NCBI GenBank assembly: GCA_050084515.1 | Contig: CM114271.1 | Coordinates: 17,608,001-17,672,000 of the forward strand | Source of the DNA: Blasia pusilla | Lineage: Eukaryota | Reading direction: 5' to 3' | DNA length: 64,000 nt | In this document: positions 2 to 37,947 of the stretch, one piece after another | How the letters are laid out: the number at the start of each line of letters is the position of its first letter | How positions within the stretch are numbered: the first letter of the stretch is position 1 | The notes under the pieces: model-generated | The model's input: only the letters and a program-made list of their open reading frames with translations | The model's database searches: none | Told to the model about the DNA's origin: nothing | Program-made: the position numbers and the translations under genes

Positions 2-650
2 AGATTCAGCAGGCAGGCATCCTTAGCGTCTTTTTCACCGCACTTGCTACTTTATGGCCGAGAGCCAGATTTACCTGCGGCCATTCGTCGAGATGCTGGT
101 GAGGTGCTGGACCTTGATGACCCCAGATGTATGGGTGCGAGCTTGTTCTCAGAGGGCTGAGTTATTTCAGAGAGTGATGCCCATGGCGTTTGAGAACTTG
201 GCGATTGCACAGCATCGGGATACGTTGAGGTATGCGACTATTCGGGATGGTGGTTATCGACCAACTATCCGGAGGTTTGATCAAGGAGATTATGTCTACT
301 TGCAACAGACGGCACCCACGATGTTGGATGTGACTGCAGGGCGCACTATCCTTAGAGTGCGTGATATTTTGCCATCAGGTGTTCTCTTGCTGGAGGGACG
401 CGATAGTATGGTATGGAAGGACCATGTGCGTAATTGTGCGCCATGTCACCTTCCTAACATTGATGGTACAGTAGATCCGAGCTTAGAAATAGTTCCTGCA
501 GGCTTGCATTGTATGTTGTGTGGTTCTGCCCGTGGTGCGGCCACAATGCTAGGCTGTGATGGGTGTTCAAGAGGATGGCATATGGCATGTTTGACGCCAC
601 CTCTCACTAGGGTTCCTCAGGGACGATGGATGTGTCCCAGATGTACATAG
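2..650 (+). pseudogene. Retroviral-type integrase C-terminal part fused to a PHD finger (frameshifted near the start)
   Basis: Frame 2 reads RFSRQASLASFSPHLLLYGREPDLP (end of integrase core). ORF 54..650 has FDQGDYVYL...HVRNCAPC (SH3/GPY-F-like region) and then CMLC...CDGC...WHMAC...WMCPRC, a C4HC3 PHD finger. Confidence 0.88.
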
Positions 651-821
651 AGTAGGTCGTTCTACATTCCGACTTGTGTCTGTGACATGGATGACAAGAA
701 GGCGACTAACGATGGGGCCACATGAGCACCCGACCTTCTTGCTCTTAGCGTCCGAGAGATGTATATCATGGTAGGTAGGGATAGATGGCTATCTGGAGTT
801 AGAGGGACCTAACCACCAGCT

Positions 822-830
822 AGGGGGGCG
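822..830 (+). promoter_or_regulatory. Polypurine-tract-like sequence AGGGGGGCG
   Basis: Lies downstream of the integrase and directly before repeat B. An equivalent motif occurs in family B at 7883-7892 (-). Confidence 0.65.
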
Positions 831-958
831 ATTGGAGATATTTTGGTACTTCTTGTCTCGTTGTTTGGATGCCATGAGTTAGCATGGGATCATGCGTGTT
901 TGTGTGTGTGTTCGGTGACAACGATGTATGTTGTGTAGCGATGTGTATGCGCACGACA
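831..958 (+). repeat. 128-bp direct repeat B1 (second copy B2 at 1472-1599)
   Basis: ATTGGAGATATTTT...GCGCACGACA is present twice with only a few substitutions. Confidence 0.95.
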
Positions 959-960
959 AG

Positions 961-1410
961 TGTCACGTCTTTTAGGATAGATCGGTGAGATCTAATAGAG
1001 CGCCTTCGTGAGTAGTGGAGGACACGCTCAGTAGGTCGCGGATGACCTGCTGAGGCCCCGGAAAACCTGAGAGAGCCGGTTTCCCCCTTGTTTCGGCTCA
1101 TTTGGAGCCATATTGAGGAACTTACTATTTTAGGTAAGTACCATTTTGAGTATATGATCGACTTTATATTTTTGGTAAGTGGCCCTTGACCTCCTACATC
1201 AGGTCAAGAGCCAAGGAGGTGACTTGGGAGAATAGGTTACCATGGAGAGAGCTTGGGAGAGGGGAGGGGTATACCTCAAGAAGAGAGAGCTTGAGAGCTC
1301 ATTCTCTCTTTGTTGAACCTCTTGGCATGAGGCGGCGGAGCTATGGTACCTTGCCTTGTGAGTGATACCCAAGCCTCTAATTAGGAGAGTGGTTTTGGTT
1401 TGACATGAGA
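961..1410 (+). repeat. LTR-like repeat A of family A (other copies at 7281-7733 on - and 53653-54033 on +)
   Basis: Starts TGTCACGTC. About 450 bp are clearly shared between the three loci. Confidence 0.92.
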
Positions 1411-1471
1411 GAGAGTGCACACCTTTGAGAGCTATGGTGTGAGATGGTGGAGAGAGAGATTGGATCCTACT

Positions 1472-1599
1472 ATTGGAGATATTTTAGTACTTCTTGTCTC
1501 GTTGTTTGGATGCCATGAGTTAGCATGGGATCATGCGTGTTTGTGTGTGTGTTCGATGACAGCGATGTATGTTGTGTAGCGATGTGTATGCGCACGACA
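1472..1599 (+). repeat. 128-bp direct repeat B2, right terminus of the element
   Basis: Copy of 831-958. Ends in CA at the junction with unrelated-orientation RT sequence. Confidence 0.93.
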
Positions 1600-2100
1600 G
1601 CCGCCACTAGTACAAACAATGAACATTTTGGTTCGTGAGGATCGATGCCCCAAAATGCCATCTTCTGCTTGTCCTCCAATCTGATAGGTAGGTGATGGTA
1701 TCCGGCTCGTAAATCTAATGAACTGAAGACCTATGCATACCCAATCATATTTAAGATCTCCAGAGGGGTGGGCATGGCATACCTATCGAACTTTATTTGC
1801 TGATTGATAGGTCGGTAATCTCCACACATCTGCCTATCCGTCCTGTTGCCATGCACATCCTTCTTGGCGGGCATGATAGTGGCAGATGCATACTCTCCAT
1901 ACAATATCTCCACTAGTCGTGCTCCAACCAAGTCCTGCCTCCTACTCTGAATCAGAGCCCTCTCCATATCACTGTACCTGTAGGGATTTCGAAAGATTGG
2001 CGTGTCACTCAACAACTCAAAGCAGACCCCTGGACCCTTCAACATACCCAAATCTTGCATGCTAAATGCAAAACAACTCCTATAACTCCTAAGGAACTGG
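1600..2100 (-). pseudogene. Reverse transcriptase N-terminal half (Ty3/Gypsy), decayed
   Basis: PIFRNPYRYS, YASATIMPAKKD, RQMCGDYRPIN, DRYAMP, KMAFWG. Confidence 0.9.
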
Positions 2101-2487
2101 TGTATCCGGCGCCGCTCTCCTCCTGTCTATTTAGGGCCCATATTTGGCTCCCAAGTCTCCATCGTGAAAATGGTAGAACTCTCCGGCACGGGTGTCGGTG
2201 GTTGCTATGGTGCAATTATGTCTCGGACAATAGAACTCTCATTTCCACGTGCAGTACTCGGAACCACGCTCGATGCTATGGCTACCATCTCATAACGTAT
2301 CTGCAAAACATCCCAAGAAGTCAAAGGGTGTCTCTCCCGATCACCTCGGCCTGGTGTGTCGATCTTCTTGGATCTCATCCCCAACCACTGCCTCAACCGT
2401 CTCGGTAGGCATAGGGCTCACCAACGCAACAACTGTGATCTTTGCATCCACAAACAATGCTGCTCAGCTACTCCTAAGCTAAAAATT

Positions 2488-3445
2488 CATGTCAAGAAAT
2501 TCAGGTCCATCACCTGACCCAAGATATGACGTCGTAATGCCTCTCATATTATGACGGTATTACAGTCACTCCTGTGGGGAATCCCATCGCTCCCTCTTGC
2601 TCTTTGGCGTTGGGCTCCACCAATCGCTGTACCTGGTCATCCCAAACCAAGCCTGGTCCGGCCTCCTTGAATTCATAAGAAGCGGGAAAACTCACCAAGG
2701 TGGGAAAGGCTGCATGTGGCATGCAAATCTTGTTGGCCACAGTCAACGGCGGTCGATCATCATGCCGTACCACCTGTGATCGATGACCTCGATCCATAAT
2801 ACAATCGACCAACAAATTGGATGGGCGCTCCACTCTCGCATATGCGAGAGTGGAGCGCCCATCCAATTTGTTGTGGTACCAAGTTGGTCAACCAAAGACG
2901 CGGGCGGTGTGCTCTAGAACCTACACTCACCGTATCTAGCAATACTGCTAGCCGATCCATGCGCGCACCTGATGTGCACTCGTCACCACGCGAGACCTCG
3001 AATCGCCCAAAATTGGCACATTCTCTCGAATATATGCTAAAGAACAAGGCTGATGCTCCTATAAATGTCGCAAGATCTGCATTTTCTCCCAAAACAATCT
3101 AGACTGAGTGTCAGCTAACCCCCTACCTTGTCCAACACTCCATTGGCCCTGACACGGCCGACCAGCAATGACCAAGTCTATGGTCCCTACTTGCTCCAAG
3201 TCCCGCCCGAGCAATGAAATGTCCCTTGGTAGGGAACTCTAGTAACCCTAGATGGCAGACGCAGGCAACAAGTCGGGAAAGTGGAGGCAAAACTACGCCA
3301 CATGATGAAGTTAAGCGCGCCTTGCAACATCATCAATCTCCACATACAGGTACTAGTGCACATGTACACCCGACTGCAAAACAATAGCTAACCCAGTGCT
3401 CATCCCTCCAAAGAGATCCAACACCCAAATACCCTCCTCTAGGAT
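2488..3445 (-). pseudogene. DNMT3-like C5 DNA cytosine methyltransferase domain inside retrotransposon pol
   Basis: Manual translation gives motif I IWVLDLFGGMSTG, motif II YLYVEID, motif IV IDLVIAGRPCQG, GLADTQSRLFWE, motif VI YIRENVP, motif VIII LDTVSVGSRAHRPRLWLTNL, motif IX EQEGAMGFPTGVT and motif X ILGQVMDL. There are several stops and frameshifts. Confidence 0.92.
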
Positions 3446-4399
3446 GCGTCATACAATGGGTGTGGTATACAAGGGCATCATCATAGCACTCTTGACTACC
3501 TTGGGTTCCTTTGACGTGTCACGCTCTGGTGCAAACGTCTCGCTCCACGCGGTCTGCACATGCTTAGTGGCTAAGCATCGCAACTCCTCAGTCAAGCCCC
3601 AAAGCGGCACCTCTCCTCTCCTCCACGGATAGATGCGCATACCATGACACTCCTCTCCATAGAAATGTCAGGAACGAGAGTGTACCTTGCATGGACATGT
3701 CGCTCAATCAAATCACTAGGCCAAGTGATGGCATTGCTAAAAGCTGCTAAGGTCGCCATCTCTCCCGATCGTCGTTCAATCACTCCACTCTTAAATTGAA
3801 CGAGTAATGAACAAAGTTTTCCATCATCGGACTCCCATCCTGGTCTGTAGGATGCTGACTCCTTCCAGTAATCCAGGGAAAATCCCATCGGGTATAACAC
3901 TGCTCCACCAACCAAGACGTCGTAGGACCCTGCATCGCTCACTATCGCATTGGCTCGCACCACATACTCATCTGTAGGATGTCCTGGGCGCATCCTCACC
4001 ATGATCTCCTATCGGGTGATATACTATGTGGTACTCGCTCCATCCAAGGATGTCTCTATTTAGAATGGACAACGCTCCACATCAACTCTCGTCAAACCCA
4101 ATCCTCTAAATGAAGCTTTCCCCAACATCAAGGGTTACGCTCCTAAATCCAAGAAGACGCGCTGAGCACCAAAAGCTCTACCTTTGGGCTCATATTTTTT
4201 ATGCTCATATTTTTGATGCTCCTCCTGGGCATAAAAAATATGAGTCGTCGCTATCGTTTCTCCCATTGCCTTCCGTGCATGCACACCAAGAACATCACCA
4301 ACTCTTCGGGAACTCTGATCAGGACCCATCGATGGGATCCTCATTGCCTCGGACAACATGAAAGACTGAGGAAGCCTGGCTTGTTTCTTGGCATCCCCT

Positions 4400-6091: not shown

Positions 6092-7994
6092 TCTTGATAG
6101 TAATCCTTCAATAACTCAAACTAAATATGCGGCACTCAATCTATACTCTCTTAGTGAGACGTGTACTGTGCGGCAACAAGCGGTGTGGTCCGGCAAATCA
6201 ATTGATCTATCGTCTCATCGAAAAACCATCCTCAACTCTAGACATCCCACACGGGTCTATATCCCCTAAACCAATACATCATCGATGCTCTCACCATGAG
6301 CACAAAACCCAATATCCCAAATAACTTCCCAATACCCGAAAATCCCTCACACGTGCAGGGTAAGAGACCACAATGGATAACTTGACAAGAATGTCGATGT
6401 CGCTCCTCGGCAGTTGCAAATCTCAACCCCAACTTGATCGTGCATACAACTCCTTCAATTAGCAAGTCGTACTCCTCTCGTATAAATGTTGCTCAAACCT
6501 CCTCAGTATGTGGTGCAGATCCAGCAATACGGCACGGAACGGCTATAGAACGGCACGACACTCGATAATGGGATGCAGCACTCCGCGGCATACCCTACTC
6601 ACGCAGTGACGGTGGATCATTGACGGTGACGGTTGACCATTGACGGATGACTGTTGAAGGCGACGGCCGCCGCCGGCGCGGTGGATGGTTTAGGGTATGA
6701 ACAATTTTACCCTAAAAATCGCCTAACAATGGCAATTTTGCAAAATCAGCCAAACTTTCTGCTAGTAGCTCTAAATTGCAGAGTGTCTATTGCATAGCGT
6801 GCACAACTTTACGATCTACAATGGCGTCAAAAAATATTTTGAATAAGACTTTTTAATAAAACGAACAAGGATTTTTGTAAACCCCAACGTCTCTTCTCTT
6901 ATAGAAATTTTGGCAGTGCTTCCGCGCTGATTTCTCCTAATAAAAATATAAAACCTATAAAAATACAAATCAAAAAGCTACATGGTGCTTTTGAGAGCAC
7001 TGGAATGGGGCAACCTGACCCCATACTCAATCCCTATTAGGAATTGGGCAGCGCTTCCGCGCGCCACTCTCTCACACAAAAAATGACACACAAATATCCA
7101 AACATTGTGGATCTTGCTCTCGTGAGCACTCCCATGAGCCCTGAAGTGGGGAACACGATCCCCAACCTGCACCAAACATCGCGCAACTAGCAAGTTTCCC
7201 CATGAAGCTCTTTCATCCTCTCATTTCTCTTTTTGTAAAATAAGGTGAAATCTCTCTCACATGTGTGTAATCTCACATATCTCTCTCAATGTCAAACCAA
7301 ACCCACTCTCCTAATGAGAGGCTTGGCTTACACTCACAAGGCAAGGGACCATAGCTCCGCCGCCTCGTACCAAGAGGTTCAACAAAGAGAGAATGAGCTC
7401 TCAAGCTCTCTCTCCTTGAGTTATACCCCTCCCCTCTCCCAAGCTCTCTCCATGGTAATCTATGCTCCGAAGTCACCTCCTTGGCTCTGGACCTGATGTA
7501 GGAGGTCAAGGGCCAATTGCAAAAATAGAAAATTGACCACATACTCAAAATGGCACTTACCTAAAATAGTAATTTTCTCAATATGGCTCCAAATGAGCCA
7601 AAACGAAGGGGAAACCTGCTCTCTCAGGTTTTTCAGGGCTTCAGCAGGTCATCATTGACCTCTTGAGTCTGTCCTCCACTACTCGCAAAGGCACTCTACT
7701 AGATTTTACCGATATATCCTAAAAGACGTGATAGTTGCCACGATAAATCTCTATCTATCGGCTACTAAGATGTGACAACTGTCGTGCGGATACACATCGC
7801 CACACAACACCACTCTTCCCAACACACGGGTCGATCCATCCATAAACCAAACAACTCATACATATACATCGAGACCCAACAACCGCCCCCCTAGTTGGCA
7901 GTTGGATCCCCCTAACTCCATATAATAAACACCTATGTACCTGGCATGATTTACTATCCTATATACATTGGTGCCGTCATCCACACAACACTGC

Positions 7995-8065: not shown

Positions 8066-11000
8066 GGCACGACTCCACCTCTGGCTCACGAGTTCGTCTC
8101 CAACAAAAATAACAAAGCTCCGTACCATGGGAAGAGACACGCGCCCTGACATGTCTCTCCGTGGGACTATCCGCTGCGGGAATTTCCTCCGCATGTGTGA
8201 TCCTCGATATCGCCTTTCCGTAACCCCAACGCCAAACATGCCGTTTTCCCTAACATCAAGGGTTGCGGTTTGAATCAAGTAGGGCGCGTGGCGGGTCGTA
8301 CACCGTACATGTGGGACTAACCAAGAAAAACACTACTACTCGATTATCCAACAACACCACACCCGGTGTGATCATGGCTCGCTCAATGGCCGGTCGAGGT
8401 GGCATATCTACCAACTTTTTTGCCACAGAGCGTGCCTTGACTCAGTGGGAGAGGTCCCGAGCACATGCTCCAAGGGAAAGTCTATCACCTCCTCAACTAC
8501 CTCTGAACGAGAGGAAATCATCTCTCCACGCTCACACAACATGGTGGCCAGCCGAAATACCTCCATTGGTCCAATTCCCAGCGTTGCCAACTCCATGGCG
8601 GAAAACAATGGAGCGTGGCTCACCCTAATGGCCACCTCCAACAACATGGTCGACATTGGCTCCTCCCGAGCCCGTATAGGAGTCGTCTCTCCAACTCCTC
8701 GTGACGTCGACGCACCTATCCCACCCATAGGTACTACCAGTCTTTGAGGCACCATCGACGGTGTATGTAGTGCCTCTGACAATGTGATAGACTGGGGAAC
8801 CCTAGCGTGCCGCCCATTGTTCCCCTCCTCTAGGTCAATCTCAACCCTACCTCTCGATGGGTCGGTTACTCTCGCAGCACCCCGAGTCACCACCGAGGCA
8901 GCCTCAACCTGAGTCGCATTACATATAAATCCCATCCCTGCAGAATCCTCACCAGCATTGGGGTAAGATGTGGAGGTTGGCGCCACATTAGCTACTCTCA
9001 GCTCCGCGCCTGCCTGCATCATCGTCATGGCAGCAATCCTATGCTTCAATTGATCGATGTGAGTAAGGAGCGCTGCATCGGATGCACGTCCTCCATCTCT
9101 TGTGATTGGTGGTGGCACTCTACCATGACGATCATCAACTTCTCTCACCCCCAGGCCCTTTGCCTTCCCCTGGACGTATCGCTTGGCAAAGATCAAAACA
9201 CCTATCCCTAGTGTGACCATATCGGTGACAATGATTATACTGCAACTATGATAGAGCCATCCTCTATGGCTCCTAAGAAATTGTAGGCACCCGTGGCCCT
9301 CTTCCATGTTGTGGGCAGTCCCTCTGCCTATGTGGCCTACCACACGTCCAACAAGCCAACCCTGGTCCATGCTGGGAAACATATGTTGGAACGGGCCGTT
9401 GCATCATCGACTCATGATATCCGCCATGCTCTCTAGGCCTAGCGGCCCGCTCTTGAGGTACTAGTGCATGTTGGGGCACCTTTGGGTCTACTCCTACTCG
9501 TCCACCTGTTGTATCACACAAAAATCCCCTTGGTTAGCACCTGCTTCTCACTCATGTTGAGTTCTACCCTCTCAGACAACTCAAAGACCACCTTCAATGT
9601 GGGCTTTGCTGTGTGAAGCAACATCGCATCCCGAACTCTCTTCCGTAGCTCCTCATCCAACACCCCGTACCATTACTCCATTGACAACGCCTCAATCACC
9701 CGATATGTTGCAATGATCAATCTCCGCATGCGCGTGAATGCCTCTCTCAGACTCTCACCGGATCGTCCCTGAAAATCATGTAGACTCTTCAGCTTGTCGG
9801 TGTGTACGCCTTGGTAGCTCTTCCCCAAGTGTTGGAAGAACTGCACTGTGGGACTGAAGCTAGGTGGCCCTCTACTACCACAGGTCTCTGCCATATTGTG
9901 TGTATCACTGCTCTCCTTTCCATCTAGTCTTTGGGCTGATGGTGTGGGTCTCTCTCCTCTCACAATCCCATGAGATGCCTTGCGACCACTAGTGGATGCT
10001 TACCCTCGAGCCCAATACATCCTCCAGGCATCAATCTCTTCTGAATATAGCGATCAGAACTCCATATAATCATCCATCGGAAGACCCTCCAAGTGCTGGA
10101 ACAACCCCTTCCATGCCATGAAAGGGTTGAACCATGTCGGGATCCGTATCTCCTAGAAGTCGCACCACGTGTCAAACTCTTGGATGAAGTCATCTAGGTG
10201 GATGGTGCCCACTTCACCCGAGAAATGACGTATGCCCCGATGGTTGATGTCGACCATCTCCTGCCAAGTGACATTGCCTTCGTCTGCGATCTCGTCACCA
10301 GACCGACTGTTTAGTGATGACGATCCAGCTACGGACGGAAGTCGAGGTTGCTCCTTGCTCATAACCCCTCGATATCTCAGTCCACTTTGTGTCACACCAC
10401 CACTACTGCTCAAACTACCCCATTTTTCCCAACCCTAGAAGAACGCCGTGACGATCATCTTGTGTCACCCGCTCAAACACTGAGACTCACCAAGAGTCTC
10501 CCGCGCTCCTCACTAGCTCACATATGCTAATGGTAACCTCGTGATGACACACCTGGCTTCACGCACACTCAACACTCGGGCTTACCCTGAGCCTCTCGAC
10601 TATCTCACCTAATCACCAACATACGCTCATGTCATACACTCGATCCCTACTCGCAAACCGCCATACAAACATGCTAAACATGAAAGAAATCTACACTCGT
10701 CACCATAACTGAACCCATCTAGCACTTGCTACTACCCAACCCAGCACTCTCATTGACACAAGACAAGTGCAGGAAAAGGGACTCGAATGGATAACATGAA
10801 TACTCCCACCAATCAACTACTCCATCAACACTCACTCCTCCATGTGGCTCGGCAACCTCCGCAACACAACCATCTCCTTGCACAACGAGTTGATCCTCCC
10901 ATCACCGGATGCAGACAACCCATCGGCATCATCATATGCATCTCCATCAGTAACACTTGCAAATCCTTGCCACGCTCGAAAAACATCAAGTCTCAAAAAT

Positions 11001-11609
11001 CTCTCAGCCACTCCCGATCACTACTCTCAACTTTTGGCACAAATCAATCTCATTATCAATAATCGTGCAACATCTCCACGTAGCCCAGCCATCATGTTCC
11101 TTTCCTAGTAGACGCTCATTCTTCCACTCCAATCTCAACTTTAGCCAACGTTGGGCCTCACGGCTTTCTTCTACGCACTCCGGTGCAACCTCCCCACCCG
11201 CTTCCTTAGGCACGTGGTCCTATTCAGGACCTTGCCCGTGTCCACACCTCCTACACTGTAGTTCCCTCACTACCTCATGCACGCATCCCTATGACACATG
11301 TCTCGTCATTATTCCAAGCTCTCTAATGGCCCAGCTCTGTTCCCAACAAACTCAACCTTAGGTTACTTATGTGGTTTCCCGACCTGCACCCTTGCCTTGT
11401 TCTCATTAGATATGGGCACGTTGCCCTATGCAACGTCCACCTTGCCCAATCCTGGCCTTAATTGCCTCCCCGATTGTACCTTCACACGTACCTACCAGGT
11501 ACCATCATACCTGGCCTAAGATCCTGGATTCATAAAGGCTCCTATCTCCACGCACCTGGGCATGCGGCCCTATGCACTTGGGCCCAACCTTCTTCCTTTA
11601 ACTTTTGAG

Positions 11610-12715
11610 ACTATCTCAAAAGTCTAGGAGTCTTGTAGAGATTCCCTTCGAGTTGAGGCCAGAGCCGTTCTCCCCACTTTCTCCTCCTTAGTTACCTCCG
11701 GTCAGTCTGGGCTCCAATCTTCCTTGATGGAAGCCCACTTTGAGGCAGTTTTTAGAGGCACTATGTCTGACGGGAATATCCCCATGGAGGTTAGGGCCCG
11801 TATTCGCTCTTGCTCCGGAAAGGGGGCAGGCTCATGGGTAGGGGCGCGCCCCCTTCTCCAGGCTTTCCGTATCGCACCACTTACCTATACCACAGCGATG
11901 CGGTTCCGCTTGGGCCTCCCCCAACCATCGGTGGTTGGTTGACACACCGCTGCGAGTGTCGCGAGCCTGGATCCACTTGGTGTGCATTTGGCACGTTGTC
12001 GATTGGGGTGAGAGGATAGCCACTCACGATGCGAAAGGCGGGATATCATGTTGATGTATTGCTCGGGAGAGTGGCTTCCATGTGCAGAGAGAGAGGCACT
12101 ACTCCATGCGGGATTCCCTCATTCGTGCCGATCTCTACATGACACGTGAGGCTGAGGTGGTTGTGACGGACGTGGTAGTCACAGATCCTACGCTGGGAGG
12201 CGTCATGCGAGCCCAAGTGGTGGCCCAAGGGCAAATGCTACAAGGAGCGGCGGCGGCGGCGGCGAAGAAGACACATATCTCTGATCGACTACACGAGGGA
12301 CACATCTTCATCCCCCGGCCATAGAGATGTATGGGGCTATGGGGAGAGGTTCGACTTCGTTCCTTACGGGATGCGCCCATCATCTCCACTTGAGAAATGT
12401 GTTGTCCTTAGCTCTCTGCGATTCTCATTGACAGGCGCTGGTCTCCATAGCGTTGCGGCGTGCCAGGCTAATGGGATTTTGCAGCGGGCTCAGGTGTGGG
12501 AGACGCCGGCGCTAGAGGCCCACTTAGTAGTAGTCATAGCTCTCTTGTTGTTCTTGATATTGTCTCTGCTTTGTTGGTGAGTTTCGTCGGGGGGGGAATG
12601 CCCCTTCTTCCTTTTCTGGTCCTGTTGTGGCCTTCAGGTTTTGACTCTTTGAGTCCCCCTCTTTTGTACTTCCGATGGGTTTTCCATCACTCGTTTTTAT
12701 CGAAGTGCATCTTTC
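11610..12715 (+). mobile_element. 5'-truncated non-LTR retrotransposon (RLE-type, CRE/R4/NeSL-like) inserted in element B
   Basis: GAGSW...AMRFRLGLP, a Zn-knuckle CEC...DPLGVHLARC, RIATHDA, and RLE-like RADL...DVVVTDPT...AAAAAKK...FIP. Frameshifted. Confidence 0.75.
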
Positions 12716-16443: not shown

Positions 16444-19400
16444 ATGGCGTCAACAGGGTCCAAGCAGCTCCAGCTGAGCACGAGTATTCAGGCTAGTTTT
16501 GGCAATCCGGAGGACCCCGATTACGTATTCGAAATAGTCGCCAAGTAAGATTTCAAACTCAGCGATGTGTTTGCGATTGTCAAATCTGTCAAGCGGGTCC
16601 AGGATTGCCTGTGTAGGTGTGAAATTTCCATGCGGATGGGTTTTGATCAAAGGGCCTTGAGAGATTATGCTGATTGGTTATCCAATATTTGGCGTTTTTT
16701 GGATTCATTTGGCTCAATGCAGTGTGCGTTGATGAGATTTGGATTTGTTGGTATGAATTATAGTCGTTTCAGATTTGAGTAGGGGAACAGGATTTAGGGT
16801 TTAGGGTTCAGCAAAAGCTCAAATGGCGATGGCGGAACTGGTTCTGGAGTTTGAGTAGTGGCTGCTGTAGTCTGTGGACGTCTGTACATGGGTTGATTCG
16901 TGTGTTTAGCGGTGTTTGGTTTCGGAGGTCCGAACCTAGTACTGAGTTTTTGTGAAAATTGGACGGGTCTCAGTGGAGATAGATCTGTTATGGCAGTTTC
17001 TCTTTCGACAAATGCCATCAAGCTCTACTCTCCTGCCACGGGAGCATTCTTGGGAGACTGCTTAGGGCACACAAGCACTGTCAGTGGCATCTCATTTCCT
17101 GATCCCAATTCGCCAGCGTTGCTTGTTTCTTCTTCAGCCGATGGGACAATCAGGACCTGGGACATTCGACAACGCAAAGAGGTGCGTTTCGCAGCTGTAT
17201 GGGAACTAGTTTGCTGATGTTCTGGAATGTTCCCATGTAATGCTCAGGGTTTATGAAAACTGAACGAGTTTTGACATACTTGCAGAGTCTAGTATTTAGA
17301 CATCCCAATGCTGGCAGTGAGATATGGAGCTTCGATTGTTCAAAAGTCAACCACCTCATCGCTGGAGGTGGAGAGGCTCAGGTGATCATCGCCCACCCCT
17401 CGATACAGTTCAATACGTGCATTTTATGAGTTTTGCATGAATCGATAGCTTCTTTACCGTAGAAGGGATACTGGAATTGAATTTGGTTTTGAGTGCATGA
17501 GTTTTAAAATAATGTATCTTATGAAAATACTGCTCTAGGTGCTCCTCTGGGACTCAAGGAACTCGAAGTTGGCAGCCAACATGGACGAATGGCACACTGA
17601 AGCTGTCACTCAGGTTTGTGATCAGCTCATATATTTGGCCTCACAAATCAACTCATTTTGCCCTGGTGATGTCTGATACTTTGCTGGGAATTGTAGATAC
17701 GCTTCAAATATGTGAGTTATTTATGGCTTCCAAACTAAAGAATTTTAAGGTTTCTCGAAACCAGGTTTTGTATGATCTGAAAGTCAAGCGTTCAAGGTGT
17801 GAAAGAGCTCTTCGTGTGACCTTATCTCAGTGGGTGGTCAGTGTGTGTCCTTTCATGCCCTTCACTCTCAGCCTGGGTTGATCACTGATGGATTACTCCC
17901 GCTTGTTTAGAGCAAATGTGGGACGTTCCATATGGAAGCATCTCTGACATCCAAAGGAGCTTTGAAACTCACCCTCATATAATGCCTAAGGAGATACCTG
18001 TAAGGAAGATTCAATATCCTACGTCAGTTGCATACCAAATCTTCCATAAGTTGCATACCCAATCTTCCATAAGTAAGAATTGTACTGGTTAGCTTATACT
18101 CCCACTCTGCCCATACATTGTTGGGCACAGACTCGAGTACATCTCAGGGGCATTAACTGTGGTTTTACTCTGCCATTTGGCCTCTCATCTCCATTTCATT
18201 TTGGTAGCCTGATTATCTAATTTTTTCCAGACCTGAACGCATGGCATTCATGTTGTGCAGGTTCACTTTCACCCAACAAGGACGGAGGAGCTAGTTACTG
18301 CATCTGTGGATGGGCTTATTAACATTGCTAATACAAATGAAAGCCTCAGCAGTGACGAGGGTCTTAGTACTGTACGTTCATAAACGTCTTCATTTAATTT
18401 TCAATCTAGCAACTGTAACATGCTTTAGCAGTTTCACAGAAGTGTCTGTCAGACAAGTTTGTAGACAGGGGGATGGTGTTGAATTGTAATGATTCACTGT
18501 CAACAAGTGAGCTCTTAGAATGTCATTTTGTATGGTTCCTCATAGGTCTCGCAGAAGAGCTGAAGATAACCACATTAATGACTTCAAGTCAGTTTACATG
18601 TATGTTACTGATATTTTATGACTTTTGGTGCTATTACAGACAATGAGTGTTGGAACATCAATAGCAAAAATTGGATTCTATGGGAGTTCAAATCAGCTCC
18701 TTTGGTGTCTCACCCACATTGAAACCCTCAGGTGACTTTCTTTTCTGGTGGTTGTAATATCTTAAGTAGCAGGCATTGTTGTGGATTTGGAAGATGTAAT
18801 TCAGTCATTCATATGGACAACAGATCATTATCTGGTTATGCTAACAATAGATTAGAAGAGCGTTGTGTCTGAGGAAAACCAGATCTAGTTGTACCATGGT
18901 TCACTCTGCATTTTTGAATTGCAGTATCTGGAATATGGATGACCAAAACGAAGCAGCTACTTTCACTGACACACGTTCAAAGGCTTCTTACAATTGGAAC
19001 CTACCTTCTGTAAGTTTTAAGCTGTCCACTTCCGTCAAAAGCAGCTGAAATAGAAGTACAATTATTTTGTTCAGAAATTATTTTATGTTAGGTTGGTGGG
19101 GCAATTTGAGTTGATGAATCTTCACCTAGCAAGTTTGTAGGCTTTATAGCAAGTTTGTAGGCTTTGATTTGAGGCTCTGTGGAGCGTTCATCTCGTTTAG
19201 GGTGGTCCATCCAAGAAGACCACTTCACAATGTTTTAATGGATGAGAGAGCAGGTGGAGCTGATATCTTTCCTCACATATTCAGGTGAACTATCTCATCG
19301 ACTGTCACTCTCCAGCTGGGACCGAGAACCTCTGGCTTGCAGCAGGCAACAATGACGGTTCTGTAGGGTACTTTCCTGTGAGTTTTACCAAGTCTAGTCA

Positions 19401-23960: not shown

Positions 23961-24280
23961 AATTACTTCTAATAATAATATATACATTAGGAATTTTTTC
24001 TAAGAATCCTATTTTTAATGTTTGGATAATGGATAACCCTATCTAGTAAGAAGAAACTCCAAGTAATGGAACAAGTTATCCCATGATTGATTTTTTTTAT
24101 TACAGGACTACTGGGCCACAAAACCGCCTAACACTTTAATTATTAGGGAGATACCTCAACGGTCTCAAAATCTCTTCCCTGAAGGGGTCCACGTAAGTGC
24201 ATGCGGAGGGCTGTCTATCCGCGCCGCCACACTCGCTAGGAGACACCCAAGGCGTTGCTTTTCGGGAAATATTGAACTTT

Positions 24281-24580
24281 CGCTCGCAAGAAAGCGTTAG
24301 ATCTCGTCCGGGGACATGATCGTATTTTTTTCTCTCAAGAAAGCGTTGAATTTCATGAGGAGATATCCTAACTCTGCTCGCAAGAAAGCGTTGGATCTCG
24401 TCGGGAGACATCATAACTTTTCTCTCAAGAAAGTGCTGCATTTCGTCAGGAGATGTCATAATTCTGCTCGCAAGAAAGCGTTGTATCTCGTCAGGAGATA
24501 TCAGAAATTTTCTCTCAAGAAAGCGTTGGATCTCATCAGGAGACATCCAACTTCTGCTGCACGAAAGCGTTGGATCTCTA
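24281..24580. repeat. About 45-bp tandem repeat (about 7 units, alternating subtypes) inside ORF 24136..24945 (-)
   Basis: The core CAAGAAAGCGTTGGATCTCGTCAGGAGA recurs. On the minus strand it translates as SPDEIQRFL(ERK/ASR). Confidence 0.9.
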
Positions 24581-26404
24581 AACGATTTCTTTCGCACACT
24601 GGATCTCCGACTGCCTGCCCCTCGGATCAAGTTGAATGGTGGCTCGCAGTTTCCTCGTCCAAACGCTCGCCGGACGAGTGAATACCGCAAACCACGCACC
24701 TGAGCAAATAGAAAAAGCATCCAACGCAATTCGTCTTGGTTCCTTCGGCCATGGAGACGAGGACATTCATGGAAGAGAACGCCTTCGCCATGCCATGTAA
24801 CGCACAACGTTGGAAAAGTCTCACGATATTCAACCACAAACCTAATGGCCACGACAGCGCTCGAGAAGCGTAGAACCTCCACCGGTAAGAAGTGACACTC
24901 AACAGCGGTCCAACTACCACCGTCGCATTCACTGAAAGAGTTCATTCGCGAAGATGCGCCACTTCAATCGGGGAACGGCACTCGAGCACAGTTCAACTGC
25001 GGCCGTAGCTGCTCTGCGACACTTCCCAAGTTTCGGTGGGCGAACCAATTTAGAGCAGTTGGGAAAGAGAATAGTAGACTTTGATGTTTCCTTTCGTGCA
25101 ACAACTCAACCGCCGCAGCAGCACAACACTTTCGTAGAGCACATGATGACGAGTACACACGGAATGCTCAATGTGTGCCCCCTTGCTATGAGCGGGATCG
25201 AAGCAGTCCGTTGGCATCCAAGACTCCTTTCACCTCGTGAAGGTAAAAAAACAGCAAGAAAACGTTTCTACAAGCTTTGCTCTCTCATGTAGCAAGAAAA
25301 AGATTTTGTGGGAACATGATCTCTTTTCCGAATTTTTCCCGGGAAAAAAAAGTTCGGGAAAGGATACACAAGATTATCACTTCCATCGTGGCCTTCAGGT
25401 TTTGACTTCCGATGGGTTTTCCATCACTCGTTTTTATCGAAGTGCATCTTTTTGCTTCCATTTAAAAAGGCATCTTTTTGCTTCTTTTGTATATCGTACG
25501 AGTGTTTCGCACACCATGCTCTGAAGAGCTTTCTCGGCAGCTGGTGGAGTATATTAACTAATGACAATTATCATTTTAATTATTCAGAAATTTTGAAAAT
25601 GATTGATATTTTCTTTTCTATGGTCAAGAAAGATAATTCAGCAGATTTTATAAAACTACATAAAGTGGAACGTAGAAATGATCATGCCCCGAAACCGACT
25701 CTAATGAATGACAAGTGGGACAGATGGCCATGATCAAACTCGCCGATCAATAACAACGTAAATAAGTCTCCCGTTGAATACCTTAAAGTGTACATGAGAC
25801 GCCCTATTACACTGAGAGCGCACGGAAGTCCCTTTGACATTACACGGGACTTCCGTGGCCTGTCCCGTGAGTCTTCCCCACCAAAGCGCGACTGTGCGAA
25901 GGTTTCCCGCGTGCGAAGAGCTGTTATCGAATTCGTGGACAGTAGAAATCACGACTTAACAAACTTCATCCTCAAAATATAAAAATATATACCACGATAC
26001 CATGTTCCGTCCGTTTTACGAACTTTTACCCGGACTTTTATGCAGCGACATAAATTTTTTTACACGTGGGAACGCAGTGGTGGGCATACGCATCCTTCTA
26101 TTACACACTTCGCGCTTCTTGGAACGCTGCCAACGTATTTTGACGTGACCAATACCGCCCTTGTGCACGTAATTTCGAGTGCACTGCACTGGTATAAGAA
26201 CCTCAAAATGTACATAAACCAGTACGCCGGTAGAGAACCACACATGTGAGAAGAGATTGTCAATCAGATTGTTTTTCCACCGAAACCGATATCCCATAGC
26301 CGGGAGTGTTTAGGGTTCGTTCGAAGAAAGTGACATGATGCACAATCTCAATAAATATGCATCATGGATTCCAGTCAGAAGAGAAGTAAAAAGGGAGATG
26401 TATC

Positions 26405-26552: not shown

Positions 26553-27357
26553 AAAATTATGGAAACCTATTACCTACCAAGAAACCCCTCATTTCCTACA
26601 AGTGTCTTCCCGACCAGTTTATGGCTTTCGGCCTTTAAACGAAGCGGATATCTTTTACTCTTACCAGCTGCAGTTACTCCTAACCCAATCATTGTTGTGA
26701 ATGGGATCCTAATGGATAGATCATAAAGCACCCTTAATGTTATCTTTGGTGTGCAAATTATGTTATCCATTGTCAATGAAATAGGTGTTCATAAAGGTGA
26801 GGCCATACTCCATGACACACATGACTTAATATTTTAAACAAACAAAAGAAAATTGCCAAGAAAATGGGTTTGCGATTCCGTAGACATATGGAAAATGCCT
26901 TCATTGATTACGCTTGGTTTTCTTTTTCCATCTAACCGATTCCCTTCTCTTCTCTTGGGCATGTTGATAATTATTCTCTTCCCACCTTATTAAACTTATT
27001 AAAGGGTCACACTTTCCATTGTGTTCCAAAATTGAATATTTTTTTATTATAAAAAATTCGGAGACATCTTAAGGGATGTCATGATGAACATTGACATAGC
27101 GTAAATGAAGAAACTATCCACTAATCTACTATTATTGGAAAGTGTTCTATCACTTTGCAAATTCCTCCATCGATGAGATCTTTTTAAATTAATCAAAATG
27201 GCGGCTGAAAATTAATCGTGACAATTTAATCGTGCCATAACTTGTAGGTTTGGGAACATGGATGGATTCCGCGAATGCGTGTTGTGCACGCATATGCAGC
27301 AGAAGACCGAAATGGGAGATAAGGAAGGCTGTGGAAAGCAGCATCAGAGAAGATCTC

Positions 27358-30300
27358 TCAGAGCAGTGAATTGCGTTGGAGGTTCGTTACAGGTCCTCGG
27401 AACCAGTTCCTGGCACTGACGATCCACGATCCGAGAGCGAGAACGAACACGCCGCCGACAGCTACGGGAGTGTAATTGAGAGTGTCGGCCCGAACGGGAT
27501 ACGCAACGGGAAGGCAGAAAAGCACCGTTATGGTGACGACCCACAGGACGGCAATCCAGCCCACGAAGATGCTGAAGCGCCCCAAATCGAGGGGCCCCGG
27601 TTTGAATGTGTCGCGCGCCGTGGTGATCCGGAAGAGGATGGGCAACGCGTACGCGATGTACAGCCCGATCGTCGCGACGGACACCATGGCTTGGAACGCC
27701 ACCAGACTTCCCAATGACTGCACAAGGACTCGCAACGGGCGGTTTCAGATTCTCGTGCACAATCGAAATAAATAAATAAATGACGGCGAATATAGAGAAG
27801 AGATTGGGGCACTTTTCGGAGACTTTTTGTGAGCCTTCCGCTTTCGAAACGATCGGCACACGGAATCGTGCACGCCACAGCTAATTTGACGGCGAGAGAA
27901 GAAGAAAGCTGGGGGCTTCTTACCGTCAGCGCCATGGCGAAGGCCATGACGACAGAGAGCCATACGGCGTTGCGCGGAACTTCTCTCCTGTCTGTCACAT
28001 TCCACAGTCTGGAGAACGGGATCGCACCGTCTCTGGAAAAAGCGAACGCCATCCTGCCAAACGCAACAACGACGCCGCTCACGGTCAGCACTGGCTGCTC
28101 TCGTCTATGGCAGAGCAGCAACACGGGGACTCCCGACAAAGGGACGACTCGGAATCAAGATACCTCGAGTTGCTTGTGACTGAGCTCATGCCGCAGAAAA
28201 AGATGGCAACAGCCACGACACCCAAGCAAAAAATGCCTCCCGTCCCACTACCATATCTGTCCTTGAAAACATCGTAGAAGACTTGGGCTATGGCGTAACC
28301 CTTCGCGTCATTCTCCGGGTCCAGCAGCCGTGATGGGTCCACGACGGCGAAGGTGATGCCTACGAGATAGCCCCAACCGACCACGATCGATATCGCGATG
28401 GAACTCAAGATGCCGTAGGCACCATTCTTGTCTGAGGATTTGGTCTCCTCGGACTGTAAACGCAGCACACAACGCCAGACACGATACTTTCGGTCAGCAA
28501 ATCCATCGATATGCTCAATCTTCCACGACTTGCATCGATGCAGACTGACTGCTCCACGAGAGTAGTAGTAGTAGTAGCTGAGCAATCACAAAGCCAAAGA
28601 AGGGAAAATCTAAGCTTTGGATGCATATGTGGGGCAGATTCACTGGTTGTATATGAGATGCAGTCCAGTGAGAGGGCATCTAACAAAAAATGGGAGAACT
28701 CATTCTTGAGGGATATGAGGGTCCGATCGTACTTACCATGTGAGCGGATGCATCGTAACCACTCAACGTGTACTGACTCATCAATAAACCCAACAGGAAG
28801 ATGTATGATTCGCTCTGGATGCCGGCACCGTTGTCTCTGTTGAAGGACGAAAAAACGGAGCTTACAGTTTGCCTTTCAGTGGCGACCATGGGGATCAACA
28901 TCATCAGGACAAACACACCTGCCAAAAGATTTCAAGCCGTGGCTATCCCATGTGTCAAAACACGTCTTCTTCGTTGGCCAACTCCATCGACCTTCTCAGT
29001 CCATGGGGTTGTGGGTTTGTTCTTATAGCTATCGAGAATTGTAATAAGCCATCGCAGATGATGATGATTTCAGCATGCCCTCAAATAGTGCACAAGGTCA
29101 TGCAAAAATCATGAAACTAGAAATGGATAACACAGAACCACAATTTTATATACCTACAGGGTGAAGAAAACGTACCAAATATATTCCAAAATGCTGCGAG
29201 GGTTCCCAAGTAAGCCAGAATGTGAATAGACATGCTGTTCATGAGGCCATGAACAACTAAGATCCCAGCATGAAATGCTATCACGACATACTTGGACGCG
29301 AAATATCCACCACCATTTCCGCCTCCAGTAGCTAGCAAAATAATGACTTGCATCAGAGTGGCCAATGAAAAGTCGATACTTGTTGTCACGGCCCACTGCA
29401 TCACAGAAATGCACATGGACGTTTCTTCTCCTGATCAGTGTAGTTCGAATATTCCTCCCACGTTATGGCTTCGAAGATGAGTATCTACTTCATCCAATTC
29501 AAGGTGCGAAGCAGACTGAACGTCCTAACTCGTCACGTCAAGCAGAGTGGTGTTTTTCAGTCGTGCCAATATATCTTGAGCTAACTTGAGGATGTTTAGG
29601 TGCTGACTTCGGAAATTTAAAGCAGAAGCACGACTCTGAAGTGGAGCACAACCAAACGTGGGTATCCCAAACCAAACTGAACCTTCAAAACAAAGACTTT
29701 GGAATTGATCTAGAGCAAGGAAGATGCGTGACGGACCTGGCCAACCAAGTTGTACCTGCAGCGGTCAGACACACTCACATGTTTTAGTACTTTCTTCCAG
29801 AGGAGAATTCCAGCTCGTTATGAACTCAAAGTGCAGTAGAGTAGAGTTCCAAAGCATAGTCTATCATGGAGAGAGGAAGACAAAACGCCAGATAAGATTG
29901 GTCATGCCTGGAGACTTGACCAATCTTAGGAGGCTTACTAGTACACTATCATTCGAGGCGACAGAACATCCACACCATGACATTCAAGAGACGACTGACC
30001 AGCCAGTCATCCATGATGCGAAGGGCCCCCATGAAGGCCCTGCCAGTTTGTAACTCCAGTAGTAAAGACCACCAGAAGTGGGGTATGCAGAGCATATCTC
30101 AGCCATGGACAGACCCACAAACATGTTGAAGAATCCTGTGATGAGCCATCCGTAAGTCATCGATATAGGTCCACCATATCGAAGTCCAGTGTTGTAAAGA
30201 GTGGTGATGCCTGTCAGTATCGAGATGATTGCGAAGGAGAAGGCAAAATTGGAAATCAGTCTGCAGACATCCAAAGAACAAGTCGTCAAAAGAGAGAGCA

Positions 30301-30670
30301 CCCAACATCTCTAGCCAATAAGCACAGCTTCGAAGAGGCTAGAAGAGGACCAAAACAACTGAACACGACGCGTAAAAATGACTTCAGACAGATCAATCCA
30401 GCCAGAAAAGCTGACTGTAGATCAGAACCAAGACTGCTACAAAATGGGGAGAAGTCCTCGCAATTCGTGGTGGAGCTTTGACACAGTTGGGCCGATTTTT
30501 GCGCTTAAAAAGAAGACGACAAAAAATGAAGAAAGAAAGAAAGAAGAGCGGTGCAATTGCATTGCAGTGCAGACAAGAGACAGCACTCACGAGAGATCCC
30601 GCTTCAGCTCTTGCTTGTAGCCCAGGGCTTCCAAGCGCACCTGCCCTGTGTCCTTATCCCCCGCCCCCAT
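27358..30670 (-). CDS. BAT1: APC-family amino-acid/GABA permease, BAT1-like (multi-exon; span given)
   Basis: MGAGDKDTGQVRLEALGYKQELKRDLS, ISNFAFSFAIISILTG, SMAEICSAYPTSGGLYYW, GYDASAHM, SEET, TSNSRMAFAFSRDGAIP, LNYTPVAVG, SARNWFRGP. Introns have GT-AG borders. Confidence 0.93.
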
Positions 30671-36000: not shown

Positions 36001-37947
36001 AGATCAAGTATCCTCATACATCCTATTCATAGATTCATAAATGAAGGATTCCTTGCAATATATCTTGAGTATATGATGATTGTTCTTCAAGAACACGAAC
36101 TGAGTTATTTTGAAGAACTTGCATGTAAGGTCAAATGGATTGAACCTATGGAGGAAAATAATTTTGTTGCATTAAGATATCAAAAGATTTGGGAGCTCGT
36201 TGTTATACCTTACGATAAGGAAGTTATTGGTTGCAAATGGGTTTATAAATTCAAGCGTAATCAAGATAGTATAATGAACTGATACAAAGCTATATTGATA
36301 ATCAAGGTCTATGTACAACAATATGGCATAGATTATAAGGAGATATTTAGCCATGTTCCAAAGATGGCGACTACGAGAATAGTGGCTATAGTTGCAATAA
36401 GTAAGAAGTGGAGATTACATCTCATGGACGTCAGTAATCTTTTCTTGAATGGAAATTTGCATGAGGTTGTATACATGGCTCAACCACTTGGATATGAGCA
36501 TCCAAAGTTTTCATTTCGCATATGCAAGTTAAAGAAGGCTCTATATGGGCTCAAGCAAGCCCCAAGAGCTTGGTATTCCACGATTACATATATCCTACCA
36601 AAACTTGGCTTTAGAGTTTGTCATTCTAATTCCTCATTATATATCTTGAGAGGACAAGGCCATACGATTATCATTGTTTTGTATGTTCATGAATTCTTGA
36701 TTATTGGGAGTACATAGGATATGGCACAATAAGTCAAGCTAAAACTTACAAGAAGAATTTGAAATGAAGAACTTATGAGAACTCAAGTACTTCCTTGGAG
36801 TTAAGTTTATTAGAGTTGGATAGAGCATGTGGTTGTTACAGCAACAATATGCTCTTCACATGCTTTCAAAATAATTGCTTGTAAGCCAATCTGTACGGAC
36901 CATAATGTGAAGCTAAGATTGTATGAGGGAGAGTTTCTTGCATATTCTAATATGTACAAGCTTATGGTTGGAAGTTTGATCTATCTGACTATTACTTGTT
37001 TGAACTTAAGCTACATAATTGGCCCAGTGAGCTAGTTCATGCAAACACCTCGGAAACCTCACCTTGATGTTGTTAAGAGGATTATGCCTTATGTGAAATT
37101 CTTTGTTCAATTTGGGCTTCAATTTGAACTTTTTCCGAGTTTACAATTATGAGGATTCATAAGTATTGATTGGGCAAGAAGAGTGTCAGATAGACACTCT
37201 ACATCTAGTTATTCCTTCATCTTGGGAAGCATAGTTATAAGTTGGGTCTCAAAGAAGCAGCCTACAATTATTTTATCTTCAATAGAGGTTGATTATAAAG
37301 GAGCAACCAATATAGTATGTAAGGAAGGCGGTGTGGCTTCATAAATTACTTTTTCAGATTGAGGTTAGTAACTTAGGACCTAGTGTAATATATGTAGACA
37401 ACATGAGTAACGGCAAGCTTGCTAATAGCATTGTGTTTCATGCTCAAACAAAGCATGTTGAGGTGCACTACCACTTTATCAAAGAGAAAGTACTTGCACG
37501 AGAAATTGATATTGTGTATGAAGGTATAGATCAAAAAATTGTTGATATCTTCACAAATTCATTGTCTAGAGAAAAGTTTGAGATGTTAAGAAAGGATTTA
37601 GTTGTTAGAGATATCGATATGAGCTTGAGGGGAAGTATTGAAGATTAGTTATAGTCAAACTCATCGGACACATGAACTACTATATTTGGTACTCATACAA
37701 AATAGGAAAGTTTAATTTTGGTTAGTTAGTTAAGCATAATTATCTTAACTAGGGTTAGTTAACAATATTTTGTATAACTCGAGACTATGGTCGAGATTAC
37801 GGTTAGGGTTTCTTGTACGTACCTTATATAATTGAGAAGAGGATTAGCCTCCACTAATTCTCTCATTGCAAAATTTCATTTTATATGGTGGTGTGTGAGT
37901 GTAAGAGTTGTATCCCATCTGTTATGCTTGTTTAGCAATTTCCTATT
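33041..37947 (+). mobile_element. Full-length but degenerate Ty1/Copia LTR retrotransposon
   Basis: LTRs at ~33041-33309 and ~37636-37947. Decayed tRNA-iMet PBS TGATATGAGAGC at 33312-33323. Gag, protease (YIDS), integrase, RT (IGCKWVYK, LHLMDVSNLFLNG, LKKALYGLKQAPRAW) and RNaseH (TKHVEVHYHFIKE) motifs. PPT GAGGGGAAG. Possible TSD CTCAC/TTCAC. Confidence 0.9.

Follow-up and report, generated by a model that had tools for sequence, protein, structure and literature searches.

A PHD finger at the integrase C-terminus in a methyltransferase-encoding Gypsy retrotransposon family represented in Blasia pusilla

The stretch of Blasia pusilla DNA described here (NCBI GenBank assembly GCA_050084515.1, contig CM114271.1, positions 17,608,001 to 17,672,000 of the forward strand; its full 64,000 nucleotides are called the window below) begins with the 3' end of a decayed Ty3/gypsy retrotransposon copy (copy 1, 2-1599, plus strand), the integrase (IN) of which terminates in a PHD finger. 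Copy 1 lies within another element (copy 2, 7737-1600, minus strand), which carries a Dnmt3-like DNA methyltransferase (MTase). Together with related loci, the two copies define a family whose full layout is A - gag-PR-MTase - in-frame stop - RT-RH-IN-PHD - PPT - B-A-B, where A and B are terminal repeats and PR, RT, RH and PPT stand for protease, reverse transcriptase, RNase H and polypurine tract. We consider it probable, at roughly 0.65, that this is an element of the Gypsy-Dnmt3 kind in which the IN-PHD protein would be tethered to nucleosomes with unmethylated H3K4 and the MTase would act separately.

The PHD finger at the integrase end of copy 1

A first-pass annotation, made from the sequence without database searches, had placed a PHD finger at 510-650, in the position where chromoviruses carry a chromodomain. 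Both parts of this claim were borne out by profile searches, a structural model and comparison with homologues. The features of copy 1 are listed below; P and L numbers denote proteins and loci, respectively, and P0137 is the closest full second open reading frame (ORF2), 80% identical to the IN-PHD of the window.

2-124, plus strand: integrase C-terminal region, frame 2, upstream of the frameshift (tblastn, P0137 residues 817-857, 75.6%; L070 ORF2 822-869)
111-509, plus strand: integrase C-terminal helical and SH3-like domain, frame 3 (alignment to P0137, AlphaFold2 strands)
510-647, plus strand: C4HC3 PHD finger, the final 45 residues of the integrase (PF00628, pLDDT 83-92, Foldseek)
648-650, plus strand: TAG stop of the pol ORF (ORF translation)
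820-830, plus strand: polypurine-tract-like CTAGGGGGGCG, directly before B1 (same motif in the same place in L067, L018 and L003)
831-958, plus strand: split direct repeat B1 (97.7% identical to 1472-1599)
957-1471, plus strand: repeat A2, or "repeat A" (matches at 7737-7280 and 53653-54033)
1472-1599, plus strand: split direct repeat B2, the 3' end of copy 1, inserted in the RT of copy 2

The finger closes a 207-residue ORF (27-650, plus strand), the C-terminus of which reads ...LHCMLCGSARGAATMLGCDGCSRGWHMACLTPPLTRVPQGRWMCPRCT*. Residues 162-206 (nt 510-644) match the Pfam family PF00628 over profile positions 1-47 of 47 with an E value of 1.5e-11 and a score of 44.6 bits against a gathering cutoff of 24, and the other matches of this ORF are to weaker PHD-type families only. 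All eight zinc ligands are present in C4HC3 order and with the canonical spacing C-x2-C-x11-C-x2-C-x4-H-x2-C-x14-C-x2-C; the domain is followed by one extra codon and the TAG stop, so that the coordinates 510-650 are exact. The 207 residues match 144 longer proteins at E<=1e-3, and this homology, together with the profile E value, excludes a chance origin of the finger. PF00628 is present in 118 of the 120 homologues among the matches listed, most of which also contain rve, Integrase_H2C2, RNase H families and RVT_1. In selected homologues, the Pfam domains are arranged as RT-RH-IN(H2C2, rve)-PHD, and the PHD finger lies at the C-terminus or close to it. H2C2 and rve are present upstream in homologues that cover 72-100% of the 207 residues; the equivalents in copy 1 would lie to the left of base 1.

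Upstream of the finger, residues 853-1031 of P0137 align with nt 111-647 in frame 3 at 79.9% identity; nt 2-124 are read in frame 2, and thus one frameshift must have occurred near 111-129. The AlphaFold2 model of the 207 residues (mean pLDDT 73.4) consists of a helical stretch, a five-stranded SH3-like barrel and then the finger, with strands at residues 89-140 and pLDDT of 88-93 over residues 111-140 and 83-92 over the PHD finger. The finger therefore follows the integrase core and the SH3-like C-terminal domain, i.e., it occupies the chromodomain position of chromoviruses. The chromodomain family PF00385 itself was found by Pfam neither in the window ORF nor in the 120 homologues among the matches listed. 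Copy 1 is a decayed fragment, cut by the window edge; it carries a frameshift, is dead and is not likely to have any activity of its own.

Methyltransferase and PHD finger in one element

The features of copy 2 are as follows:

1641-2162, minus strand: N-terminal half of RT (start of ORF2), cut by copy 1 (L070 ORF2 21-194, 52%; P0137 5-183, 67.6%)
2199-2207, minus strand: conserved in-frame TAG CAA CCA between the MTase ORF and the RT ORF
2439-3496, minus strand: decayed Dnmt3-like C5 methyltransferase, stops present (motifs I, IV, VI and MGFP)
3778-4161, minus strand: aspartic protease (L070 ORF1 711-838, 39%; P0122 1006-1128)
4675-5920, minus strand: gag with two CCHC knuckles (motifs and L070 comparison)
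7280-7737, minus strand: 5' repeat A1 (match to 957-1414)

The MTase of copy 2, located between PR and RT, retains motif I (VLDLFGGMSTG), motif IV (GRPCQG), motif VI (ENV) and the MGFP motif, and copy 2 is collinear with P0122 across PR, MTase and RT. Homology to RT ends at about 1623-1641, next to the end of copy 1's B2 at 1599, which means that copy 1 is nested in the RT of copy 2. As the first-pass annotation had noted, the two copies have repeat A in common: 957-1414 matches 7737-7280 in inverted orientation with 89.3% identity over 459 nt. A direct match of 957-1414 to 53653-54033 is 89.8% identical.

To see the two domains side by side, one has to turn to relatives of these copies. We fetched 80 metagenome loci encoding relatives of P0137. 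Among the 35 whose sequence extends 1400 nt or more upstream of RT, 32 encode the MTase (the exceptions are L001, L063 and L065). Twenty-two of the 35 are also long enough to include the PHD finger: 19 contain both domains, L023 and L047 the MTase alone, and L063 the PHD finger alone. Full-length copies that carry both thus exist. The order gag-PR-MTase-RT-RH-IN-PHD, which had been pieced together from the two copies of the window, is found in the intact L070, in L075 and in P0122. L070 has an ORF1 of 1369 residues, with the protease at 708-757 and PF00145 at 940-1086 (E 1.8e-13), and an ORF2 of 1047 residues, which encodes RT, RH, IN and a PHD finger at 990-1034. L075 is organized in the same way, but a frameshift divides its ORF1 into frames of 701 and 728 residues. 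P0122 is a single ORF of 2811 residues with DNA_methylase at 1380-1481, RT at 1845-2008, RH at 2072-2201, IN at 2384-2552 and PHD at 2765-2808. A Pfam scan of L070 ORF1 found PR and PF00145 only, i.e., the MTase is a bare catalytic domain with no reader; the best solved sequence relatives of the element MTase are DNMT3A, 3B and 3C (E 5e-8). The earlier proposal that the element encodes a histone reader and a methylation writer as a pair holds in the sense that one element encodes both domains. The two lie in different ORFs with a stop between them, and hence they do not form a physically coupled pair.

Breadth of the clade

A full HMMER scan over 1.84 billion cluster representatives (clusters at 50% identity) gave 6499 matches at E<=1e-3, 1006 at E<=1e-10 and 245 at E<=1e-30, and of the 150 representatives listed, 137 retain the complete C4HC3 pattern. 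The named hosts of homologues are Marchantia polymorpha (79-80% identity), Calypogeia fissa, Sphagnum, Klebsormidium nitens, Pleodorina starrii and Haematococcus lacustris. Within a large clade of the green lineage, the PHD finger is thus an old component of the integrase and is under selection.

Judged by Pfam, the MTase would appear to be rare in this clade, with PF00145 flagged in 5 of 120 homologues among those listed and in 5 of 23 long representatives (E<=1e-5). This conclusion was overturned by direct comparison. The long representatives have a gap of 600-750 residues between RH and IN, and 24 of 25 RH-IN gaps match the L070 MTase in phmmer with E values from 1e-11 to 1e-73; the sole gap without an MTase homologue is that of P0340, 197 residues long. 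PF00145 misses most of the transposon-borne MTases of the clade (e.g., those of P0297, P0315, P0321 and P0075), and domain-based surveys would therefore undercount Gypsy elements that carry a DNMT.

The union of two hit lists contains 55 RT-containing proteins, 36 of which have the MTase and the PHD finger in one ORF, in the order RT...MTase...PHD in 34 and MTase...RT...PHD in two. The RH-MTase-IN-PHD order is seen in P0056, P0113 and others. The remaining 19 encode no MTase in the same ORF. In 17 of them, at most about 210 residues precede RT, which is what one would expect of an ORF2; in P0090, the stretch before RT is 600 residues long and contains no MTase.

Selection on the PHD finger

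Among 38 recent, mostly decayed copies, pN/pS is 0.82 for the PHD finger and 1.0 for the core, with all eight ligands kept in 32 of the 38. The selection test was moved from these copies to the pair L070 and L075, both of which have an intact ORF2 (88.8% amino acid identity, pS 0.66). In this pair, dN/dS is 0.044 for the PHD finger, 0.028 for RT, 0.032 for RH, 0.028 for the IN core and 0.059 overall, with 0.127 for the MTase and 0.137 for PR. The PHD finger is as constrained as the enzymes of the element.

The stop codon and the terminal repeats

An in-frame stop separates the MTase ORF from the RT ORF in 39 of the 44 sequences with enough upstream DNA: copy 2 of the window (2207-2199, minus strand), L070 (5083-5091), L075 (4661-4669) and 36 further loci. 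Its contexts are TAG CAA CCC (26), TAA CAA CCC (9), TAG CAA CCA (copy 2), TAG CAA CCT, TAG CAA TCA (L075) and TAG CAG TTA (L070). The leaky-stop consensus of plant viruses is given as UAG_CAR_YYA in the part of PMC3542737 that deals with it; three of the contexts match it exactly and the rest were counted as deviating at the last base only, with the reservation that nine have TAA. It is unusual for a gag-pol recoding site to lie after PR-MTase and before RT, as this stop does.

The B-A-B arrangement at 831-1599 of the window is the end of a longer unit, and the complete A-coding-B-A-B is present in the related metagenome loci L067, L018 and L003. In L067, A1 occupies 2620-2956, the coding part ends at 11087, and B1, A2 and B2 follow at 11254-11368, 11373-11709 and 11709-11823. 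The A-coding-PPT-B-A-B spans are 2620-11823 in L067, 1676-10805 in L018 and 1768-10971 in L003. In all three of these loci, the unit begins with TG and finishes with CA, and 4-bp target duplications (CATA, AAGG and TCTC) lie on either side of it, which fits a putative DDE-type integration of linear A...B DNA. TG..CA ends on split repeats are not explained by the ordinary reverse transcription of long terminal repeat (LTR) elements.

Two further observations concern the repeats. In front of the 5' repeat A of copy 2 lie a PPT-like motif and a diverged B repeat (7737-7924, minus strand), and upstream of these is a fragment of the MTase-bearing Gypsy family with gag and PR only (8223-10269, minus strand). 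The region has the appearance of a tandem, "internal-PPT-B-A-internal-PPT-B-A-B", and not that of a simple nested insertion. At the other end of the window, the second repeat A (53653-54033, plus strand) adjoins a gag-PR fragment (55308-57691, minus strand) that is 80-82% identical to copy 2; the arrangement at 53653-57691 mirrors that of copies 1 and 2, lacks MTase-RT and may represent either a duplication of the nest or a pattern of insertion that recurred.

Which histone mark the PHD finger may read

In sequence comparisons, the nearest solved chains are those of CHD4 PHD1/2 (E 6.7e-18), PHF12, KAT6A, DPF2/3, KDM5A/B PHD1, PHF21A, ATXR5, AIRE, BAZ2A/B and UHRF1. The single-domain Foldseek matches include DPF3 (1.0 A root-mean-square deviation (rmsd), 46% identity), DPF2 (0.8 A), BAZ2A (1.1 A), the ATXR5 PHD-H3 complex (1.4 A), UHRF1 and BHC80; the title of entry 4q6f (BAZ2A) names an "unmodified H3K4 histone peptide" and that of 3zvy (UHRF1) the "unmodified histone H3 N-terminal tail". 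We take these nearest solved relatives to be readers of the unmodified H3 N-terminus. The PHD fingers of this group (the second PHD of DPF2, DPF3 and KAT6A; BAZ2A/B; BHC80/PHF21A; ATXR5; UHRF1; AIRE) are 38-49% identical to that of the window over 45-49 columns, superimpose with an rmsd of 0.8-1.8 A and have with it the common core ML.CD.C.RG[WFY]HM.C. They are parts of cellular chromatin proteins, whereas the finger of the window belongs to a retrotransposon integrase and its binding is a prediction.

PHD fingers that read H3K4me3 have an aromatic cage. The finger of the window has no aromatic residue between Cys2 and Cys3, and its Trp directly precedes the His. From its similarity to the nearest solved relatives, it is predicted to be a reader of the H3K4me0 type.

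The top multi-domain Foldseek matches are the Tudor-PHD modules of PHF1 (E 3.7e-6) and UHRF1 (TTD-PHD). These matches arise because an SH3-like barrel is followed by a PHD finger in the model as well; at 13-15 A rmsd, they give no support to a particular relative arrangement of the two domains.

Proposed mechanism and alternatives

The following sequence of events can be proposed. The gag-PR-MTase protein would be the abundant product, and RT-RH-IN-PHD would be made by readthrough of the stop codon. After readthrough and processing by the protease, the integrase would bear the SH3-like domain and the PHD finger, which may bind the unmodified N-terminal tail of histone H3 (K4me0 type) and thereby tether the intasome to nucleosomes without H3K4 methylation, away from active promoters. 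Such a role would be analogous to that of the chromodomain of chromoviruses. The MTase would be a separate protein, derived from the upstream ORF with gag and PR, and its substrate may be the cDNA or the new copy, as de Mendoza et al. propose in the section of PMC5890265 on such elements. The reader and the writer would thus be encoded together and act in trans.

Several points weigh against this scheme. An MTase cannot be demonstrated for copy 1, the 5' part of which lies beyond the left edge of the window. In some IN-PHD proteins, such as P0340 and P0090, no MTase is detectable, and the pairing of PHD finger and MTase is thus common but not obligatory. The two domains are encoded by different ORFs, and processing would separate them. 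The pN/pS values of 0.82-1.0 among the 38 copies reflect neutral decay and lend no support to selection. Some K4me0 readers place an acidic residue just before the first Cys, and such a residue is not evident in the finger of the window; the specificities of its solved relatives are in part taken from general knowledge, and its own binding is a prediction. The nesting of these elements, which had been put forward as a sign of heterochromatin targeting, is real, as the insertion of copy 1 in copy 2 demonstrates, and compatible with the scheme, but as evidence for targeting it is weak: LTR elements are often nested, and selection against genic insertions accounts for the pattern equally well.

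It is also conceivable, with a probability that we regard as modest, that the PHD finger does not choose integration sites at all and instead brings methylation machinery, that of the element itself or that of the host, to the new copy, in trans and in the manner of an ADD domain, or serves in nuclear import, in particle assembly or in contact with a non-histone partner. The joint occurrence of MTase and PHD finger in 36 of the 55 RT-containing relatives, in two domain orders, looks as if the pairing were selected, and an MTase that is a bare catalytic domain (Pfam, L070 ORF1) has no reader of its own; the Tudor-PHD modules of PHF1 and UHRF1 at the top of the multi-domain matches point the same way. 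Yet the finger is fused to the integrase and not to the MTase, in the very position of the chromovirus targeting domain, IN-PHD elements without an MTase exist, and the Tudor-PHD resemblance does not extend to the arrangement of the domains. A finger that reads H3K4me3 or another active mark, and would steer integration to promoters or to safe sites in active chromatin, is a good deal less probable. PHD fingers as a class do include H3K4me3 readers, and the host genes between the clusters of transposable elements in the window (WD40, amino-acid permease, TAF2) indicate that the family is not confined to gene deserts. Aromatic-cage readers of the ING, BPTF and TAF3 type, however, are absent from the 60 solved relatives listed and from the Foldseek single-domain matches, and the finger lacks both the aromatic residue between Cys2 and Cys3 and, by the usual rule for such cages, a Trp two residues before the His.

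Finally, we give practically no credence to the view that the finger is not part of the element and represents an exon of the host, captured or adjacent, or a zinc-finger-like ORF that arose by chance. Marchantia gene models do label fragments of this sequence as "PHD-type domain-containing protein". This view is refuted by the location of the finger in the same ORF as the integrase C-terminus, with the PPT and the terminal repeats behind it, by its identical placement in 118 of the 120 listed homologues and across 245 clusters, and by its dN/dS of 0.044. Tethering of the integrase to chromatin unmethylated at H3K4 is the reading that we prefer.

Relation to known elements

The element is a liverwort-like addition to the published Gypsy-Dnmt3 kind, and its PHD-bearing integrase falls into a published class of accessory domains. 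The first-pass annotation had over-rated its novelty, considering that Gypsy-Dnmt3 (PMC5890265), retrotransposon PHD fingers (PMC6673714, PMC9940879) and LTR elements with a reader and an MTase (bioRxiv 10.64898/2026.05.21.726589) are in print, as the relevant passages of these sources show. According to the passages of PMC5890265 devoted to it, KnitGypsy-Dnmt3 of Klebsormidium nitens has, like the element described here, Gypsy domains and an intron-less Dnmt3-type MTase in its polyprotein, and the legend of Fig. 4c gives it the DIRS-like A-coding-B-A-B layout of the window family. The MTase is under purifying selection in both (Ka/Ks < 0.2 in PMC5890265, 0.127 here); the hosts differ, being liverwort-like here and K. 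nitens there. The term "PHD" has no occurrence in the text of PMC5890265 or in one supplementary spreadsheet, and Fig. 4c or the supplementary PDFs may show such a domain. Two IN-PHD proteins of K. nitens, P0028 and P0115, are 52% and 43% identical; no link was made between them and the published KnitGypsy-Dnmt3.

REM1, dated to Perez-Alegre 2005, is reportedly a PHD-bearing retrotransposon of Chlamydomonas. For the same genus, the passages on these elements describe Gypsy-7a_cRei as a Gypsy LTR element with a PHD accessory domain (PMC9940879) and the PHD as "a common accessory domain" of C. reinhardtii transposable elements (PMC8557442). No MTase is reported in those passages, in contrast to the element described here; the chlorophyte relative P0039 from Pleodorina has an MTase homologue between RH and IN. 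Chromoviruses, as presented in the relevant parts of PMC3605345 and by Gao et al. 2008 via PMC6673714, likewise carry a histone reader after the integrase C-terminal domain as a proposed chromatin tether, but there it is a chromodomain that recognizes H3K9me, and here it is a PHD finger with the unmodified H3 tail as its predicted ligand.

LTR elements that join a chromatin reader with one or more DNA methyltransferases are called EpiLTRs, or "epigenetic toolkits", in bioRxiv 10.64898/2026.05.21.726589. As outlined in that preprint, those of Cymbomonas and Euglena combine a chromodomain, DAM and a DNMT4-related DNMT, whereas the family described here combines a PHD finger with a DNMT3-like MTase and occurs in the green lineage, including bryophyte-like genomes. 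Streptophyte "Gypsy-DNMT3" is referred to in the same preprint, PHD/Chromo fusions of transposable elements are surveyed in bioRxiv 10.1101/2021.11.30.470311, at least in the portion concerned with them, and DNMT3s embedded in streptophyte retrotransposons are mentioned in a passage of PMC12344493 without further detail. Our literature search found no paper on the pairing of DNMT3 with an integrase PHD finger or on these elements in bryophytes. The breadth and constancy of the PHD-MTase pairing, the two positions of the MTase, the conserved stop between MTase and RT, and the 4-bp duplications around DIRS-like repeats may be new.

Other features of the window

Further fragments of the MTase-bearing Gypsy family lie at 10269-8223 (minus), 57503-55631 (minus) and 63799-63999 (plus), and the fragments of this family are clustered at 0-13 kb and 53-64 kb of the window. 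The right end is occupied by an ordinary Gypsy element (59698-64000, plus) with gag at 59698-60846, PR from 61599, RT, and RH up to about 63590, the nearest relatives of which are from Riccia and Marchantia; at about 63690 it abuts a plus-strand fragment of the MTase family with 75-82% nucleotide identity to 3087-3475. This element was considered as a second case of the RH-MTase arrangement and rejected: PF00145 or PF00628 occurs in 0 of 120 relatives of its RH among the matches listed, and thus the MTase piece at 63690-64000 is a juxtaposed fragment.

A Ty1/copia element (33055-37876, plus) contains RVT_2 (E 7.7e-37) and a Pol beta-barrel domain, and its LTR-like direct repeats (33055-33276 and 37649-37876) are 77-79% identical. 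A 45-nt tandem repeat of about five copies (24328-24552) lies inside a minus-strand ORF of 275 residues (24139-24963), for which there is no Pfam match. Host exons are found between the clusters of transposable elements at 16897-17214 (plus), 27347-30310 (minus) and 43106-45662 (minus) and comprise WD40 repeats, an intron-split amino-acid permease and TAF2.

Implications

A more far-reaching proposal, which we put forward tentatively and consider rather doubtful at present, is that the Dnmt3-like MTase and the integrase PHD finger are an ancient, co-selected module of one large Gypsy clade that spans chlorophytes, Klebsormidium and bryophytes. The PHD finger would place copies in H3K4-unmethylated chromatin and the reader-less DNMT3 would methylate them, which would amount to a self-silencing, low-damage lifestyle. 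If this were true, the MTase would not be a one-off capture in Klebsormidium, the logic of host DNMT3, which joins an ADD to a catalytic domain, would be reproduced and split over two proteins of a parasite, and the clade would have moved its MTase between two positions in pol, PR-MTase-RT and RH-MTase-IN.

The family offers a testable case of a single retrotransposon that encodes a probable histone reader on its integrase together with a DNA methyltransferase, and the 245 protein clusters at E<=1e-30 suggest that this pairing is widespread. If the PHD finger steers integration to H3K4-unmethylated chromatin, it would constitute a second reader-based targeting system of Gypsy elements, independent of the chromodomain, and would make it possible to ask if DNMT3s borne by transposons shape the methylomes of plants and algae.

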